Assembly (NCBI GenBank): GCA_964477195.1
Contig: CAYZCX010000005.1
Coordinates: 11,832 to 75,831 of the forward strand
Direction: 5' to 3'
From: an uncultured Candidatus Saccharibacteria bacterium
GTDB taxonomy: Bacteria; Patescibacteriota; Saccharimonadia; Saccharimonadales; Saccharimonadaceae
Length of the DNA: 64,000 nucleotides
The notes beneath the pieces are model-generated. The model did no database searches and had not been told where the DNA came from. It worked only from the letters and a program-made list of their open reading frames with translations. Made by a program: the position numbers and the translations under genes. Shown piece after piece: positions 10,728-55,291 of the stretch (within the stretch, counting starts at the first letter, position 1; each line of letters begins with the position of its first letter).

Positions 10728-11342
10728 GTGACACAACTTCTTCCAGCAGCATTAACACGCACAATCGATGAACTCGGCAAACTCCCTGGCGTTGGCGCCC
10801 GGACGGCTGAACGTTATGCGTATTTTTTGTTACGCGCCCAAACACAAACGACGACCAAGCTCGCCTCAGCCATTGCTGAGCTTCATAAAGGTGTCAAGAC
10901 TTGTCCAGTGACATTTGCCCTTATCGATGCAACGGAAGAGATTTCTCCACTTTATAGCGACCCGAGTCGTAACAAAAAACTCATTGCCGTCGTCGAAGAA
11001 CCACTGGATATTGTCGCGCTTGAACGCACCGGCCAGTTCAGCGGGACATACCATGTTCTTGGTGGGGCCATTTCACCCATCGATGGCATCGGGCCAGAGG
11101 AGCTTCACGTGCCCGAACTGATGAAACGACTTGACGAAGATGAAGTCGAAGAACTTATTATCGCAACCAACGCGAGTGTCGAAGGAGAGTCAACGGCGCT
11201 ATTTTTACAGCGCCATATCCAAGAGTCGGGGGTAGAGGTAAAGATGACTCGACTTGCTCGTGGCATCCCCGTTGGTGTCGACCTCGAATATGCCGACCAA
11301 ATCACTCTTGCTCACGCTCTTGAAGGTCGTCGTACACTATAA
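10728..11342 (+). CDS. recR: recombination protein RecR
   Basis: LPGVGARTAERYAYFLL helix-hairpin-helix; Toprim region ELIIATNASVEGESTALFL. Confidence 0.93.
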   Translation: MTQLLPAALTRTIDELGKLPGVGARTAERYAYFLLRAQTQTTTKLASAIAELHKGVKTCPVTFALIDATEEISPLYSDPSRNKKLIAVVEEPLDIVALERTGQFSGTYHVLGGAISPIDGIGPEELHVPELMKRLDEDEVEELIIATNASVEGESTALFLQRHIQESGVEVKMTRLARGIPVGVDLEYADQITLAHALEGRRTL

Positions 11343-11436: not shown

Positions 11437-11676
11437 ATGGCTGACACTCATATCGTCTTCGAGCACCACAACGAGGATTCGCTTGCTGGATACGACTCGA
11501 ATCATCGCACCCCCGAGCCCAAAGAGGTATTCAGTGGATCCGAGGGTGAATGCGAGGCGTACAGAACAAGAGTCTACGCAGAGTGTGACTTGAATGACCC
11601 CGGGCCGTACAGCAGACGTCCTCGTCTGGAGATCAGAGCAAAGCGATCTCGCTACAGCGAAACCGATCCCGCCTAA
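11437..11676 (+). CDS. hypothetical small acidic protein (GC-rich)
   Basis: 79-aa ORF, RBS AGGAAGGG, own terminator downstream. Confidence 0.4.
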   Translation: MADTHIVFEHHNEDSLAGYDSNHRTPEPKEVFSGSEGECEAYRTRVYAECDLNDPGPYSRRPRLEIRAKRSRYSETDPA

Positions 11677-11680
11677 TCAC

Positions 11681-11745
11681 AAGTCCGCCTCGAAAAGTCT
11701 CCCCCGAATAATTCGGTGTCACTACCTTTCGAGGCGGACTTTTTG
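11681..11745 (+). terminator. rho-independent terminator (long-loop hairpin)
   Basis: AAGTCCGCCTCGAAA 11681-11695 / TTTCGAGGCGGACTT 11727-11741 followed by TTTT. Confidence 0.7.
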
Positions 11746-11790
11746 ACGCCTCGAAATCATCCCTAATCTCTGTTAATTTTCTTTGCATTA

Positions 11791-11819
11791 TTGACTATAT
11801 AGTATTTTTATGATATAAT
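11791..11819 (+). promoter_or_regulatory. consensus sigma70 promoter TTGACT-N17-TATAAT
   Basis: TTGACT 11791-11796, 17-nt spacer, TATAAT 11814-11819, in AT-rich DNA abutting the GC-rich operon. Confidence 0.6.
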
Positions 11820-11877
11820 TCACCCTAGATCTTCGCTTATCCGAGCGTTGATGGCCCACGTCTCCTGAGGAGGAGCT

Positions 11878-14037
11878 ATGGCGGCGCTTCGCCACGCAGT
11901 TTTGTCTGCCACGGACGGTACACCGGAAACCCGGACCCCTGCCGTGCGCGGCGGCAAAGGTGCTGGCTTGGCGCTTCTGACAGATCTCGGTCTGCCGGTT
12001 CCGCCCAGCTTCACCTTGAATACCGGCGTCTGCAGAGCATATCTGCAGCACGACGAAATTCCGAATCGTATCTGGAGCCAGATTCAGCGAGAAATCGCCA
12101 AACTGGAGCGAGCTACCGGACGAACGTTCGGTGACCCGACGAACCCCCTGCTTGTTTCGGTCCGATCCGGAGCAGCGGAGTCGATGCCCGGCATGATGGA
12201 CACCATCCTGAATGTCGGTCTTGACCCCACCAACCTGGAAGGACTGCAGCGATGGGGTGGAAAGCGCTTCGCGCGCAATACCAGAGACCGCTTCGAGGAA
12301 CAGTGGAAGACAATTCGGAACCACATTTCTTACGAAATCAACTTCACCGACCCCTACGAACAACTCGGGACTGCCATCGTGGCCGTCTTGGAATCGTGGG
12401 GAAGTGAGCGAGCGCGTGCGTACCGCAAGCACCATGGCCTCTCCGATAACACGGGGACGGCCGTGACGGTGCAGGCAATGGTCTTCGGCAACGTCGACCA
12501 TACCTCCTGCACCGGTGTCGTGTTCAGTAGTGATGTTGCGACCGGGAATGAAGGTCTCTACGGAGAGTTTCTCACTCGGGCGCAGGGGGAAGACGTCGTT
12601 TCCGGCGTTCAGACCCCACTGCCGATCGCTGAGATGAAGACCTGGAACCCCCAGGTCTTCGAGCAGCTTTCCAGCATTGTCAGGCAACTGGCAGATCACT
12701 ACGATGACGTCGTGGATGTTGAGTTTACCGTCGAAAAGGGCGTGCTCTTCATCTTGCAGGTTCGCCGCGCCAAGCTTTCACCGCTGGCAAAGGTGACCCG
12801 CGCGGTACGCGACGTGTGGGCGAAGCGATGCACCAAGGAAAGCGCACTCAAGCGAGTGTCGTTGGCCGAGATTGGGTCGCTTCGTCAGCCGACTCTGGAA
12901 GTTCCGGAGGAGGCAGAAATCATCGCCAAGGGACTTCCTGCCTCTCCGGGGGCAGTCGTCGGCATGATCGCACGTGACGCGCCTACCCTCCGGCAGATCA
13001 TAGCCCGAGGAGAAGATGCAATTCTGGTTCGCCCCGACACGTCTCCCGAAGACTTGCCTGATATGATGGCCTCCAAGGCAATCGTGACGGCGAATGGTGG
13101 GAAAACGTGTCATGCTGCCGTGGTTGCCCGTGAACTCGGGCTTCCGGCAGTGGTCGGTACCGGCCCCCACCTGGGCATTCCTCTCACCGGGTATATCTCG
13201 GTTGATGGTGCCCAGGGAGTTGTGTACAAGGGAAGGTTGCCTCTGGTCGAGCCGACGCTCACCAAAGAGGTCAACCTTTTCCTGAAATGGCACAACGCAA
13301 AGGTCAACCCGCCGCGAATCGCTTTCGAGCGCGTCAACGAACAGCTGTCGGCAAACCAGCTCCTGAGCGACTTTTACTTGACGGACCTCATGGCCCGCCT
13401 CGCTGAAGGGTCGCCCCTGGAGCACGAAGCCGTCATGCTGCGGACAAAGACCCACCGTGAAATCGCGGAGGTTTTCGCGCTGTATCTTCTGATGGCAGCA
13501 TCGGGAGAATCTCGTCACTTCTACAGTGAGGCAGACAGCAGTGGCGCGACGGCACGCCTGGCAATGGCTCGACTGGATCGGACGATCCTTTCATCAAGTT
13601 ATGACCAGGGTCCAAGCGGGCGGTCGAAGATGCACGCCGATGTCGTAAGATTCCTTAAAGATCGTGATCTTGAATTTCTCGTTACTCATACGAGGGATCT
13701 TGTCACTGTTTTTAACGAAGGTTCATGGGATGGCGCATTCGGTGGCTCCAAATGGGGAGCTATTGCAAATGCCCTCCACAGCTTTCTTTCGGGAAAGTTG
13801 TCCGCGACGCTTTTTGTCGATCATGCGTTCGACCTTGAGCACAACGGCGGTAAGCTCTTCAACAAAAACCCGCTGTTCATGAGTGTGACCAATGAAAGTA
13901 GGTTGAAGCTTCAGCTCGATATCAAGAAAACGGTGTCTGCACCCGCAGAGTTGTACAGACGACTTTGCGAGTACGCAAGCCCCTCAAATGCAGTGGAAAC
14001 GCTGTGGGGGGTTGGCAAGCGTAAAAAAATGTGGTAA
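11878..14037 (+). CDS. PPDK-like dikinase: ATP-grasp plus phospho-His swivel domains with a non-canonical C-terminal domain
   Basis: GGKGAGL, NPLLVSVRSGAAESMPGMMDTILNVGL, GTAVTVQAMVFGN, AQGEDVVSG, LPASPGA, GGKTCHAAVVARELG (catalytic His). The last ~235 aa show no PEP/pyruvate-barrel motifs. RBS GAGGAGGAG. Confidence 0.85.
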   Translation: MAALRHAVLSATDGTPETRTPAVRGGKGAGLALLTDLGLPVPPSFTLNTGVCRAYLQHDEIPNRIWSQIQREIAKLERATGRTFGDPTNPLLVSVRSGAAESMPGMMDTILNVGLDPTNLEGLQRWGGKRFARNTRDRFEEQWKTIRNHISYEINFTDPYEQLGTAIVAVLESWGSERARAYRKHHGLSDNTGTAVTVQAMVFGNVDHTSCTGVVFSSDVATGNEGLYGEFLTRAQGEDVVSGVQTPLPIAEMKTWNPQVFEQLSSIVRQLADHYDDVVDVEFTVEKGVLFILQVRRAKLSPLAKVTRAVRDVWAKRCTKESALKRVSLAEIGSLRQPTLEVPEEAEIIAKGLPASPGAVVGMIARDAPTLRQIIARGEDAILVRPDTSPEDLPDMMASKAIVTANGGKTCHAAVVARELGLPAVVGTGPHLGIPLTGYISVDGAQGVVYKGRLPLVEPTLTKEVNLFLKWHNAKVNPPRIAFERVNEQLSANQLLSDFYLTDLMARLAEGSPLEHEAVMLRTKTHREIAEVFALYLLMAASGESRHFYSEADSSGATARLAMARLDRTILSSSYDQGPSGRSKMHADVVRFLKDRDLEFLVTHTRDLVTVFNEGSWDGAFGGSKWGAIANALHSFLSGKLSATLFVDHAFDLEHNGGKLFNKNPLFMSVTNESRLKLQLDIKKTVSAPAELYRRLCEYASPSNAVETLWGVGKRKKMW

Positions 14038-14067
14038 AGTAGTTATCGACCGAAAGGAAGTGAGGTC

Positions 14068-14928
14068 GTGGTTTCCCAAAACCATGATTGTCAGTTGCAC
14101 CACGGCGACCTGGTTTCGATCGGGTCGTACGAGGTGTACGCCGGCGGGATCAATCTCAGCGATGAGACTCTCGCCAACACCGATCTCCTGGTGACTTTCT
14201 GCGATCGGCCTCCGCTGAACCTCGGTTCGCAGGAGCTCGATCACAAGAACTTCACCATGGAAGACTTCGGTGGTGTTCCGCGGTTTTTCGCAACGTTCCT
14301 CGTGGCCCACGTCATTCCAGCAATGGAGGCGGGGAAGCGAGTGACGGTTCACTGCGAAGGCGGCTTCGGTCGCACCGGTACCGTCCTGGCCGGACTCATC
14401 GTCCTGCTGGAGCCGGATGTCGACGACCCCGTCGCCGCCGTCCGGGAGCGTTACTGCCCGCGCGCCGTGGAAACACGAGCGCAGCGGGATGGGATCATCG
14501 AACTGAGAGACACCGAACGGGCCAAGCGGGCCACGGAACTCAAGGAAGGTGGCATCATGTCCGAACCGGACAACAACGACAAGTGGCACATGGCCGGGAC
14601 CGAAGGGACCGGTGAGTACCGCGTCCTCGCGATGAACGACACCGGCAGACTCGGTTTCCGAGTCCTCGAGAACGGCAAGGTGCGCATCCGCATCGAACCG
14701 ACGACCGAGGGCAAGGCCACGCTCGCCGAGACCTTCACGGTCGACGCCGGCTGGAAGCAGCCGGGAGACTTCGGGCAGCAGCGCTTCTCGAAGGTGGTGT
14801 CCATGGGTGACGAGACGATCAGCACGGTCGTCGCAGCGCTCAAGGCCATGCGCAAAGAAGGGCGCCTCACGCGCAACTTCAAGCAGTGGTACTGGCGCAA
14901 GCACGTGAAGCATGCGACCACCAAGTAG
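14068..14928 (+). CDS. Cys-based (PTP/DSP superfamily) phosphatase fused to an unknown C-terminal domain
   Basis: P-loop VHCEGGFGRTGT (HCX5R-T) and an upstream MEDFGGVP acid loop resembling WPDxGxP. About 120 aa C-terminal are unplaced. GTG start 27 nt after the dikinase stop. Confidence 0.8.
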   Translation: MVSQNHDCQLHHGDLVSIGSYEVYAGGINLSDETLANTDLLVTFCDRPPLNLGSQELDHKNFTMEDFGGVPRFFATFLVAHVIPAMEAGKRVTVHCEGGFGRTGTVLAGLIVLLEPDVDDPVAAVRERYCPRAVETRAQRDGIIELRDTERAKRATELKEGGIMSEPDNNDKWHMAGTEGTGEYRVLAMNDTGRLGFRVLENGKVRIRIEPTTEGKATLAETFTVDAGWKQPGDFGQQRFSKVVSMGDETISTVVAALKAMRKEGRLTRNFKQWYWRKHVKHATTK

Positions 14929-14989
14929 TACAGCTTTTTGCTAGAAAAGATAAAGGAAATATTTTAAAATATTAATTATCACTTCTAAG

Positions 14990-15540
14990 CAGTGCCGATT
15001 AACTCTTTTGTGACGACAGGTCCACTTTAACGGGCCTGAGCAGAGAGTTAGTAGGGAGCGGGGACATCGAGAGTCATCTCGTTGTCGATGCGCCGTTTCC
15101 ACCTCCCTATTGCGGTGAAGTTTGGGAGCTAGGGAAGAATCGACACCGCACAAGATTCTTCCGAGACTGCTCACACAGTCTAAAAAAAACAAAGTGGCGG
15201 ACCTCTTCGTTAAGGGCACTTACAGGCGCTACACACGCTTCGTGAGTGAATGACAGTGGAGCTAACCGGACTCTCTTTTTGAGCAGTTAGCGTTGAAGCA
15301 GTCATGAGGGATCTCCCCGGTGGAGGTCTTAAAGAAAAGCGGTTTGCACCCGCACCGGTGTGTAGTAACGGCGACGTTCATACGCCAAGGGAAGTATGAA
15401 CATGAGCTTGGCACTGGCACTCTCGCAGGAGAGTCGCCTAGGCTGCGGACCATTCCAACTTATAGGGATGCTTCAGCGACAACGGTGACAGTTAGATCTC
15501 CCAGTAGTTGTTTAATTTGATGATGTATAATACTTTAAAG
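14990..15540. other. ORF-free, hairpin-dense tract (candidate structured RNA or long 3' UTR)
   Basis: Stops in all frames. Helices at 15052-58/15103-09 (enclosing 15065-70/15085-90), 15133-41/15154-62, 15164-68/15176-80, 15310-16/15322-28, 15376-83/15394-401 and 15419-24/15429-34. Confidence 0.3.
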
Positions 15541-15565
15541 TAGATTACTCGCAGTAAACAAATTA

Positions 15566-15652
15566 GCCGCCCTTTAGGGTGGCACCCCCCCCGGTTTCCC
15601 GGGTAGCCTTACTTATAAAAGTAAGGCTACCGGGACCGGGGATTAATTTTTT
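15566..15652 (+). terminator. compound rho-independent terminator
   Basis: Hairpin 15566-15583. Nested stem CCCCGGT 15589-95 / ACCGGGG 15635-41 encloses GGTAGCCTTACTT 15602-14 / AAGTAAGGCTACC 15619-31. T6 run at 15647-52. Confidence 0.8.
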
Positions 15653-15696
15653 CTGACTAAAAAGTCTATTACTTCACAATCTGTTACAATAGGGGA

Positions 15697-16686
15697 ATGC
15701 ACGACACAGCAACAGATCTTATTACCGCAGCTAAAAAAATTATTATTATTCAAGCCGAAAATCCCGACGGCGACTCGCTGGGCAGTAGCTTGGCACTCGA
15801 AGAAATACTCAGCGACCTCGGAAAAGAGGTTATTTTATATTGTCCAATCGAAATGCCCAAATACTTACGTTATATTACTGGATGGGATAGAGTTGTTTCG
15901 ACATTTGACGCATCTGCCGATCTCGCGATCTTAGTCGATACCGGCGCCGATGTCCTTATCAGCAAGGTACTCGAAACTCCCGGTGTGCGCTCATTTCTCG
16001 AGACACACCCTGTGCTTGTTATCGATCACCACACGACAGACGCGACACTTAGTTTTGACCATACAATGCTCGCCGAAACAGCTGTTGCAACCGGTGAGAT
16101 TTTGTATCGTTTTGCTAGCAAAAATAATTGGGCTATCAATGAGCAGGCCGCCGAAGATATGCTTGTTGCTATCATGTCTGACAGCCTGGGCCTGACCACA
16201 CCAAATGTTAGCGCGGAGGCATTTTTTGTTGCAGGCAAGCTGACCGAACTTGGCGCAAGCAATGCCGCAATCGAAGAACGTCGCCGTGAATACATGAAAA
16301 AATCCCCCGAGATTCTCGCATACAAAGGCGAACTAATTAGTCGTATCGAATATTTACTCGACGGCAAACTCGCCCTTGTTCACATTCCTTGGGAAGATAT
16401 TCAGGCATACAGCGACCAATACAATCCTAGCGTACTCGTACTCGATGAAATGCGCATGGTCGAAGGTGTCGAGATTGCCGTCGCCATAAAAACCTACCCC
16501 GACGGAAAGCTCACAGGGAAGCTCCGCACAAACTCTCCAATTGCCGAAAAAGTAGCCGGTTTCTTTGGTGGAGGCGGTCATATGTACGCGGCGGGGTTCC
16601 GTGTCTACGAACAATACGATAAAATAGTAGCAGAATTAGTTGAGGCGACGGATAAAGCGTTAAAAAACGATGATACGAACTCATAA
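15697..16686 (+). CDS. nrnA: DHH/DHHA1 phosphoesterase (NrnA-type oligoribonuclease/pAp phosphatase)
   Basis: NPDGDSLGS, VIDHHTT (DHH), GGGGHMYAAGF (DHHA1). Confidence 0.85.
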   Translation: MHDTATDLITAAKKIIIIQAENPDGDSLGSSLALEEILSDLGKEVILYCPIEMPKYLRYITGWDRVVSTFDASADLAILVDTGADVLISKVLETPGVRSFLETHPVLVIDHHTTDATLSFDHTMLAETAVATGEILYRFASKNNWAINEQAAEDMLVAIMSDSLGLTTPNVSAEAFFVAGKLTELGASNAAIEERRREYMKKSPEILAYKGELISRIEYLLDGKLALVHIPWEDIQAYSDQYNPSVLVLDEMRMVEGVEIAVAIKTYPDGKLTGKLRTNSPIAEKVAGFFGGGGHMYAAGFRVYEQYDKIVAELVEATDKALKNDDTNS

Positions 16687-55216: not shown

Positions 55217-55291
55217 TGGCTGGGGTGGAGGGATTCGAACCCCCGAATGCATGGACCAAAACCATGTGCCTTACCACTTGGCGACACCCCA
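55217..55291 (-). tRNA. tRNA-Gln (anticodon UUG)
   Basis: Reverse complement is TGGGGTG TC GCCAAGTGGTAAGGC A CATGG TTTTGGT CCATG CATTC GGGGG TTCGAAT CCCTC CACCCCA G CCA. It folds as a cloverleaf with U1-A72 and is close to E. coli tRNA-Gln. Confidence 0.93.

Follow-up and report, generated by a model that had tools for sequence, protein, structure and literature searches.

A PPDK-type dikinase with a helical domain of a new family in its acceptor position is linked to a cysteine phosphatase in Patescibacteria, Melainabacteria and phages

To describe a two-gene operon that encodes a dikinase of the pyruvate phosphate dikinase (PPDK) type and a cysteine phosphatase, we analysed a 64,000-nucleotide (nt) stretch of DNA from an uncultured Candidatus Saccharibacteria bacterium (NCBI GenBank assembly GCA_964477195.1, contig CAYZCX010000005.1, positions 11,832 to 75,831 of the forward strand; hereafter the window, in whose numbering positions are given unless another locus is named). 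Both open reading frames (ORFs) exist as an earlier note on this DNA had described them, and all the motifs that it quoted are present where it had placed them. The dikinase ORF (719 amino acids [aa]) occupies 11878-14037 and the phosphatase ORF (286 aa, GTG start) occupies 14068-14928, both on the plus strand. The intergenic gap is 30 nt rather than the 27 nt given earlier, and a ribosome-binding site that we judged good, AAAGGAAGTGAGG, lies upstream of the GTG. The perfect promoter that had been reported is indeed there: a sigma-70-type site, TTGACT-17(TG)-TATAAT (11791-11819, plus strand), with 11 of 12 matches and an extended -10, ends 58 nt before the dikinase start codon. We detected no terminator directly 3′ of the phosphatase (14925-14990, z -0.27); the first convincing one past the operon is a long hairpin with a U-run at 15589-15652 (plus strand; fold of 15555-15655, -55.5 kcal/mol, z -7.2), which lies ~660 nt 3′ of the phosphatase, beyond a conserved non-coding stretch. 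The locus is flanked by recR (10728-11342) upstream and by a DHH-family gene (15697-16686), followed by cysS, downstream.

The coding regions of the module form the most GC-rich island of the window, as had been noted, with 53-64% GC and a third-codon-position GC (GC3) of 0.60-0.89, against 46-51% and 0.43-0.46 for the flanking genes. Since both values lie above those of the flanks for the two large ORFs, the unit is compositionally foreign, and we concluded that the dikinase-phosphatase operon is horizontally acquired. The high GC3 of the phosphatase gene (0.74-0.89) also accounts for an artefactual 309-aa antisense ORF (13984-14913, minus strand), which overlaps the real phosphatase ORF, exceeds it in length and misleads simple longest-ORF gene calling.

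Residues 1-470 of the dikinase (11878-13287, plus strand) consist of a PPDK-type ATP-grasp domain, a linker and a phospho-His swivel domain, as identified with Pfam, NCBIfam and the PDB; we refer to them as the engine. Pfam returned PPDK_N (PF01326, E 2e-41) and PEP-utilizers (PF00391, E 6e-22) alone, with nothing past residue ~450-470 and no phosphoenolpyruvate (PEP)/pyruvate barrel. PPDK structures in the PDB matched with E 7e-93 and 34-38% identity over residues ~40-475, and the alignment ended at residue ~473. The engine contains GGKGAGL (residues 25-31), the ATP-grasp motif (89-115), AQGEDVVSG (235-243) and the swivel motif GGKTCHAAVVARELG (407-421), which is of the GG-x-T-[SC]-H-AA type and includes the catalytic His412 (codon 13111-13113, plus strand). 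In an alignment of 75 homologues, the Gly-rich loop, SVRSGA...MPGMMDT and QAMVFGN form invariant columns, and His412 and the ATP-grasp motifs are nearly invariant. Because the engine motifs are so well kept, the half-reaction from ATP to phospho-His is probably intact. The pyruvate half-reaction, judging from the sequence, lacks a domain to run on.

Database names for this protein suggest otherwise. The dikinase scores 485 bits against the NCBIfam model NF004531 (PRK05878, a short "pyruvate, phosphate dikinase"; cut-off, 456), and the match covers profile positions 9-471 of 534, i.e., the engine only, so that the name is no evidence of pyruvate chemistry. The full-length PPDK model TIGR01828 reached 449 bits (cut-off, 843), and the PEP synthase models NF005057 and TIGR01418 reached 128 and 114 bits (cut-offs, 598 and 740). 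Models of dikinases that do not act on pyruvate matched the swivel domain only, with 48 to 63 bits against cut-offs of 999 to 1350; among these was the rifampin phosphotransferase (RPH) model NF041857 (48 bits versus 999, swivel domain alone). Pfam, TIGR01828, the end of the PDB alignment and the all-helical model described below thus agree with the earlier observation of a PPDK-type match that lacks the TIM barrel.

The remaining ~250 residues of the dikinase (471-719; 13288-14037, plus strand), which we call domain X, stand in the position of the PEP/pyruvate barrel, C-terminal to the engine, and constitute a new family. An AlphaFold2 model built on the alignment of 75 homologues is all-helical, with 11 helices (pLDDT 95.8, pTM 0.93). 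Foldseek found no fold match in the PDB (best E, 0.8; TM, <0.25), and a profile of X found no match among PDB sequences. Pfam had no match for the X of the window, and 25 members searched individually had no match in common. The region that the earlier note could not place is therefore neither a PEP/pyruvate barrel, a reading rejected because the model is all-helical and has no fold or sequence match, nor the drug-binding domain of RPH, which Foldseek did not match even though RPH chains (5fbs, 5hv1) were in the PDB set. The E-x-x-H and D-x-x-H spacings invite speculation about an HD or ferritin-like metal domain, which we likewise rejected for want of a fold or sequence match.

X carries the motifs GESRHF (residues 543-548), WDGAFGGSKWGAIANAL (617-633) and FDLEHNGGKLFNKNP (651-665). 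Twelve residues are invariant or nearly so across bacteria and phages: Y536, E544, R546, F612, G622, G623, W626, D648, H655, N656, F661 and K663. When mapped onto the secondary structure of the model, the invariant residues fall at helix ends and in the loop VDHxFDLxHNGG. In the model, the polar ones (E544, R546, D648, H655, N656 and K663, with the GG-x-x-W turn) look like a putative catalytic site for phosphate or metal, and not like a passive scaffold. X is homologous to free-standing phage proteins (E 3e-14 and 5e-18), and models of relatives exist only for four unnamed phage proteins in BFVD, which belong to phrog_20946, a family of no known function. Since X is a free-standing gene in phages and occupies the acceptor position here, it is a functional unit of its own. 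Among 1.84 billion cluster representatives, 1,661 contain X at E ≤0.001 and 294 at 1e-10, and most of them are dikinase fusions of 700-800 residues.

Some dikinase-X proteins are longer (900-1030 aa; P0217, P0248, P0227, P0239, P0263, P0292 and P0091). Their extensions after X have D-x-S-G-S-M-[SG] in common, often following H-E-x-x-H or His-rich stretches, and an AAA ATPase segment is present in P0263 as well; apart from a weak Peptidase_M4 trace in L030, the extensions match no Pfam family. Distant X-like proteins (L062-L066) were set aside as informative alternative architectures because they lack Pfam domains.

The phosphatase opens with a cysteine phosphatase domain of the dual-specificity phosphatase (DSP)/protein tyrosine phosphatase (PTP) type (residues 1-164; 14068-14559, plus strand), recognised by its P-loop HCEGGFGRT and by Pfam and PDB matches. 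The P-loop, VHCEGGFGRTGT (residues 94-105), contains Cys96 (codon 14353-14355, plus strand), and the upstream loop MEDFGGVP (residues 64-71) contains Asp66 (14263-14265, plus strand), the candidate general acid. With the H-C-x5-R-[ST] P-loop and the upstream acid both present, the protein is predicted to be catalytic. The Pfam matches, to PTP-SAK (PF22784, 28.6 bits) and Tc-R-P (PF22785, 28.5 bits), are marginal (cut-off, 27 for each) and limited to residues 62-114. Among solved structures, small DSPs, SsoPTP and DUSP23 come closest (E 5e-6 to 1e-4); their chains align over residues 47-147, including the acid loop. The phosphatase type assigned earlier thus holds, and the general-acid Asp indicates a phosphomonoesterase. 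It is not an ordinary stand-alone enzyme either: the dikinase-linked phosphatases form their own group, since just the remote actinobacterial PTP-SAK relatives have unrelated neighbours. For the same reason we did not accept the latter as cultured examples of the module.

The C-terminal ~120 residues of the phosphatase (165-286; 14560-14928, plus strand) form a second domain, Y, a small alpha+beta fold in the AlphaFold2 model (pLDDT 89.9) with no beta-sandwich. The unknown C-terminal domain seen earlier is real, and it is an independent component elsewhere rather than just a tail. Homologues of Y are the N-terminal part (E 4e-16) of a 190-aa protein whose gene directly follows the dikinase gene in an Obscuribacterales genome, and 39 small proteins (112-212 aa) without any Pfam domain. 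Its homologues were recovered as small proteins only, several of them on dikinase-bearing contigs; in most other genomes Y has a small gene to itself, and the PTP-Y fusion is specific to the lineage of the window. A divergent Y-like domain is fused N-terminally to PTP in L044. Conservation is highest in the invariant loop MAGTEGTGEY (T178, T181, Y184), and R198, R206, R208, E210, W229-K230-Q231-P232 and R239-F240-S241 are invariant or nearly so, giving the alignment motifs R-x-R-x-E-P, W-K-Q-P-G-D and R-F-S. The five invariant basic residues (R198, R206, R208, K230, R239) lie on or beside beta-strands, together with the Gly-rich loop.

The top Foldseek matches of Y in the PDB are five different type III secretion system (T3SS) chaperones (SycT, SycE, ExsC, STM2138 and SycH), all non-significant (E 0.2-1.1, probability 0.35-0.63, TM 0.36-0.40), and 6 of 44 Y members weakly match Pfam TY-Chap3 (PF22552; best E, 0.0014). 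TY-Chap3 is a predicted peptide-binding chaperone that co-occurs with phosphatases of the Rhodanese-phosphatase superfamily (PMC9503650). We regard these as two weak but convergent leads, and no proof, toward a likeness of Y to the T3SS/YbjN peptide-binding chaperones. X and Y are accordingly two domain families without a significant Pfam, PDB-sequence or PDB-fold match. A conserved G-[LI]-W end of dikinase-X was rejected as a docking peptide for Y because it is present also at loci that lack Y. Two Y proteins on short contigs carry further segments: P0175 has a TIR-like segment after Y (VFISYSHKD; TIR_2, E 0.0045) and P0197 an EAD7-like segment (E 0.0027), which hint that some Y proteins may plug into conflict-system effectors.

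A scan of one genome per GTDB species yielded 59 loci, 54 of them with a strong X. Neighbours were sought with hidden Markov models for X, phosphatase and Y over all six frames, with the ORFs of the loci taken from a simple caller. Phosphatase and Y were both adjacent at 26 of the 54 X loci, usually in the order X, PTP, Y, and Y only at 11; a phosphatase, Y or both stood beside the dikinase at 46. No other neighbour family was common to more than 6 of the 54. We concluded that the linkage of X, phosphatase and Y is far from chance. The hosts are Patescibacteria of many classes and Obscuribacterales/Melainabacteria, the latter often with several copies per genome, as well as single metagenome-assembled genomes of Chloroflexota, Binatia and Gammaproteobacteria. 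Two close relatives (dikinases 67% identical) also have the module inserted between recR and the DHH gene. One homologue has dikinase-X fused to an AAA ATPase. Neither X nor Y was found in 72,556 plasmids (PLSDB), and a search of PADLOC-DB 2.0 with the three proteins gave no family at E ≤1.

Some loci have distinctive neighbourhoods. In Parcubacteria (L006/L012, 3684-6585), the dikinase-X and phosphatase genes are directly followed by genes for guanylate kinase, adenylate kinase, methionine aminopeptidase and nucleoside diphosphate kinase. In a Melainabacteria sub-lineage (L022, L029, L031, L037, L041, L053; dikinase-X of 718-771 aa), an alpha/beta-hydrolase gene lies upstream of dikinase-X at all six loci and a PIG-L-type deacetylase gene at five, with an additional HD-domain gene in L031. 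Five of these six loci are without phosphatase and Y, L031 having a phosphatase, and three ~170-aa genes of no known family lie downstream at four.

A split version of the module is present at 28 phage loci, from four isolated phage groups (Delepquintavirus DLP3/DLP5/Summit, the Vibrio J26 group, RcZahn and RHph_TM16) and 24 IMG/VR contigs. The linkage for which the earlier note proposed a neighbourhood search is thus seen at the 46 bacterial loci, which have the phosphatase, its C-terminal domain or both beside the dikinase, and at these 28. The phage block runs dikinase engine, small ORFs, phosphatase 1, free-standing X (330-380 aa), phosphatase 2, and is typically located between terminase and DNA polymerase/portal genes; the phage dikinase has its own unrelated C-terminal extension. 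In one phage module, an AAA ATPase gene is found two genes upstream. The fused type known from bacteria, including Y, occurs on two more IMG/VR contigs, L084 and L085. Y as a part of the phage blocks or of plasmids was rejected, as an IMG/VR pattern scan confirmed none and PLSDB contained none; a "GGTGAGSY" in the N terminus of the second phage phosphatase was also rejected as Y-like, being not conserved across 24 phages (hhalign probability, 0.1).

The GenBank names of the phage partners are misleading ("membrane protein," "thymidylate synthase," "pyruvate decarboxylase"). The DLP5 "thymidylate synthase" (phrog_17568; Summit L001, 12530-13312) is a PTP phosphatase, and the "pyruvate decarboxylase" of Vibrio phage J26 (L067, 11037-11891) aligns with the second phosphatase of other phages and is without the Cys-x5-Arg loop. 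Small proteins encoded beside the phage dikinase (L002, 6524-6832; L068, 9038-9319; L001, 10307-10648) gave recurrent sub-threshold CsrA matches (E 4e-4, 0.17 and 0.2). The one detailed study treated a phage homologue as PPDK, a glycolytic auxiliary gene with a PEP-binding barrel (PMC12038007). The comparative sequence data do not support this reading. The phage dikinase has no pyruvate barrel and belongs to a phosphatase-linked module, so claims of a boost to host glycolysis are unsupported, and the annotation as a "PPDK auxiliary metabolic gene" is corrected accordingly.

Two further features of the locus were weighed as possible parts of the module. A 79-aa ORF (11437-11676, plus strand), which the earlier note had listed as a candidate substrate, is preceded by an extended -10-like site (TTATCA-18-TACAAT, 9 of 12 matches) and followed by a strong terminator of its own (11681-11745, z -6.7). 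No homologue was found at any of the loci compared, and no family matched. In the relative L069 the recR-dikinase gap is just 96 nt, and the whole stretch with this ORF is missing. On these grounds we rejected it as a substrate or partner and place it outside the module. The other feature is the conserved non-coding stretch (14990-15550, plus strand) in the gene-free gap of ~770 nt (14929-15696) between the phosphatase and the DHH gene. The two closest relatives share it (nhmmer, E 1e-24 to 5e-29), with blocks of 13-25 nt that are identical, against just 52-67% identity for the proteins on either side; indel lengths in it are not divisible by 3, and RNAalifold gave 109-122 pairs, ~30 of them with compensatory changes. 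No Rfam family or tmRNA matched, and we therefore rejected a known RNA. The stretch is a candidate structured RNA, possibly co-transcribed with the operon, since the first terminator comes after it. Its GC content (47%) is that of the host background, which makes its membership in the module doubtful, and as it was also found in the three closest relatives only, we rejected it as a component. The single tRNA gene found in the window is that for tRNA-Gln (55217-55291, minus strand).

These results suggest that the unit would be a self-contained phosphoryl-transfer module and not a pyruvate-metabolising enzyme; with phosphatases as neighbours and the barrel replaced, no pyruvate chemistry is expected. 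Our best reading is an ATP-driven writer/eraser pair that acts on one non-pyruvate substrate. The proposed pairing of dikinase and phosphatase thus holds, and the parts number three or four rather than two. By the chemistry of the family, the engine would cleave ATP to AMP, and His412 would take the beta-phosphate and swing to X, where the phosphate would be passed to a hydroxyl of the bound substrate. The phosphatase would take it off again, undoing the mark. Y would hold the target segment for writer and eraser; alternatively, Y itself would be phosphorylated on its invariant Thr178/Thr181/Tyr184 loop. We infer the identity of the acceptor, and hence the reversible transfer itself. Of the readings considered we tentatively favour, at somewhat less than even odds, a dedicated ATP-driven protein phospho-switch, in which the shared substrate is a protein or peptide that is held by Y or is Y itself. 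A protein or peptide acceptor is favoured because Y resembles a peptide-binding chaperone, because Y, a small and dedicated partner, occurs with no enzymes but these, because the eraser is a dual-specificity-type enzyme, and because one homologue is fused to an AAA ATPase and another AAA ATPase lies near one phage module. A more specific form is possible and rather doubtful: a new class of protein kinase, in which the PPDK-type swivel engine transfers the beta-phosphate via X, as a new all-helical catalytic fold, to Thr/Tyr of a protein held by or belonging to Y, with a dedicated DSP eraser, in bacteria of the candidate phyla radiation (CPR) and Melainabacteria, and in split, Y-less form in many lytic phages to reprogram host or phage proteins.

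Several observations weigh against a protein switch built around Y. A phosphatase was the only adjacent partner at 9 of the 54 X loci, and 8 had neither partner, one of these being ended by a contig edge. The divergent fusions of a Y-like domain with PTP in L044 and L050 do not keep the Thr/Thr/Tyr loop, and the chaperone likeness of Y is sub-threshold in both tests, Foldseek and Pfam. The basic residues and Gly-rich loop of Y would also suit a phosphate-rich small ligand or nucleic acid. No Y was found at the split-type phage loci; Y therefore cannot be a universal substrate, and it would be more parsimonious to assume one that phages and bacteria share. Finally, the literature that we searched contained no functional study or experiment and identified no substrate.

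The same observations bear on the alternatives. A small-molecule system, in which dikinase-X phosphorylates a sugar, nucleotide or ADP-ribose-type metabolite, the phosphatase degrades the product and Y is a sensor, is unlikely on balance and is the most serious of these; we give the same weight to its extension that Y raises the affinity of the phosphatase when fused and, in other genomes, couples to effectors. With a generic metabolite as substrate, it would be understandable that phages have the enzymes and not Y, and the invariant basic residues, Gly-rich loop and aromatics of Y suit a phosphate-rich ligand. Enzymes of the Rhodanese-phosphatase group also act on sugar and sugar-alcohol phosphates (PMC9503650). 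The Parcubacteria module beside gmk, adk and ndk, the PIG-L deacetylase, alpha/beta-hydrolase and HD genes upstream in one Melainabacteria lineage, and the C-terminal TIR_2 and EAD7 traces on single Y proteins point the same way. However, no metabolic neighbour is common to more than 6 of the 54 loci, the TIR and EAD7 matches are below threshold and come from one short contig each, and the fold hints for Y are toward peptide chaperones, not nucleotide-binding domains. Less probable again is phosphorylation of a polymer, either of a glycan as by GWD with SEX4 or laforin or of nucleic-acid ends as by Pnkp, with Y targeting the eraser to the polymer. PTP-Y here and Y-like-PTP in L044 do parallel the domain orders of SEX4 and laforin, respectively, the conserved set of Y is rich in Arg and aromatics, and the phage modules lie between terminase and DNA polymerase/portal genes with weakly CsrA-like proteins beside the dikinase. 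Yet neither X nor Y has a detectable carbohydrate- or nucleic-acid-binding family or fold (Pfam, PDB), phages are without Y, the CsrA matches are sub-threshold, and the RNA-like stretch downstream is host-like in GC and confined to one lineage.

We consider it quite improbable that the module is an abortive-infection effector that drains ATP in a futile cycle, converting ATP to AMP and 2 Pi once activated, with Y as sensor or switch. The net chemistry of a writer and an eraser would be ATP hydrolysis, the island is compositionally foreign, Obscuribacterales genomes have several copies with accessory parts that vary, and the TIR and EAD7 traces would fit. Against this, no PADLOC defence model matches, the module is absent from the plasmids searched and has a fixed place between housekeeping genes in three relatives within the window lineage, and the enzyme set is a conserved core block of lytic phages, which is hard to square with host suicide. 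An ordinary PPDK or PEP synthase that serves central carbon metabolism, the reading given by database names and in phage papers, is the least credible by far. The score over the NF004531 cut-off, source records that name homologues pyruvate, orthophosphate dikinase and the treatment of the phage homologue as PPDK speak for it; it is contradicted by the missing catalytic barrel, with Pfam finding none and the predicted structure being all-helical, by an NF004531 match that covers ATP-grasp and swivel only, by the low scores with the full-length PPDK and PEP synthase models, and by constant partners that are phosphatases and not glycolytic genes.

Dikinases of the PPDK family are, to our knowledge, few in number. 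The known acceptor domains each defined new biology: C4 photosynthesis, starch turnover, rifampin resistance and prodigiosin synthesis. X adds a new acceptor domain, with no PDB fold match and at least 1,661 cluster representatives, and the module in which it occurs has a fixed phosphatase partner and a second unknown domain and is present in CPR bacteria, whose reduced genomes retain few genes that could be spared. Should a protein prove to be the target, bacteria and phages would have a new kind of protein kinase chemistry. Because the block is conserved in cultured phages of Vibrio, Stenotrophomonas, Rhizobium and Rhodobacter, the module is directly testable. Our literature search found no description of X, Y or the triad; an earlier computational mention may exist.

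Compared with known systems, the module shares with PPDK and PEP synthase the ATP-grasp domain, the swivel phospho-His (GG-x-T-x-H-AA) and the order engine-swivel-acceptor, whereas their TIM barrel is replaced here by an unrelated all-helical domain. The eukaryotic glucan system (GWD/PWD with SEX4, LSF2 or laforin), to which the earlier note had likened the pair, offers the same reversible-mark logic. In SEX4 the DSP is followed by the binding domain, and in laforin the binding domain comes before the DSP; these are plant and animal systems. The analogy holds for the architecture, a dikinase writer and a DSP-type eraser with an accessory non-catalytic domain fused on either side. It does not extend to carbohydrate binding: CBM20, CBM45 and CBM48 were not found in the module proteins, and no relation to carbohydrate-binding folds could be detected for X or Y. 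The hosts also differ, those of the module being Patescibacteria, Melainabacteria and phages. RPH, PigC/RedH and phenylphosphate synthase set the precedent for an engine that phosphorylates other hydroxyls through a swapped acceptor domain; their likeness to the module is confined to the swivel domain, and the domain order of RPH differs from that of the module dikinase.

The closest published phage counterpart, the "PPDK" block, has a homologous dikinase engine, the X protein (phrog_20946) and phosphatases in one block, and differs in its free-standing X, its two phosphatases, its lack of Y and the C-terminal extension of its dikinase. The pairs of Rhodanese-phosphatase and TY-Chap3 in predicted immune systems centred on ADP-ribosylglycohydrolase (PMC9503650) likewise combine a Cys phosphatase of the PTP-SAK/Tc-R-P type with a small TY-chaperone-like domain. 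Unlike them, the module has no ADP-ribosylglycohydrolase, Macro or NADAR, its partner is a dikinase, and the TY-Chap3 likeness is sub-threshold. Enzyme I of the phosphotransferase system (PTS) has the same swivel phospho-His domain, and both PTS and SpoIIAB/SpoIIE/SpoIIAA have a dedicated small alpha+beta partner encoded beside kinase and phosphatase. Fusions of carrier proteins to their enzymes are common. The donor in the module is ATP via ATP-grasp, not PEP, its eraser is a Cys phosphatase, and Y is unrelated to HPr and STAS. By analogy, the logic of the module would be comparable to that of PTS enzyme I/HPr or of the partner-switching triads, built from different parts.

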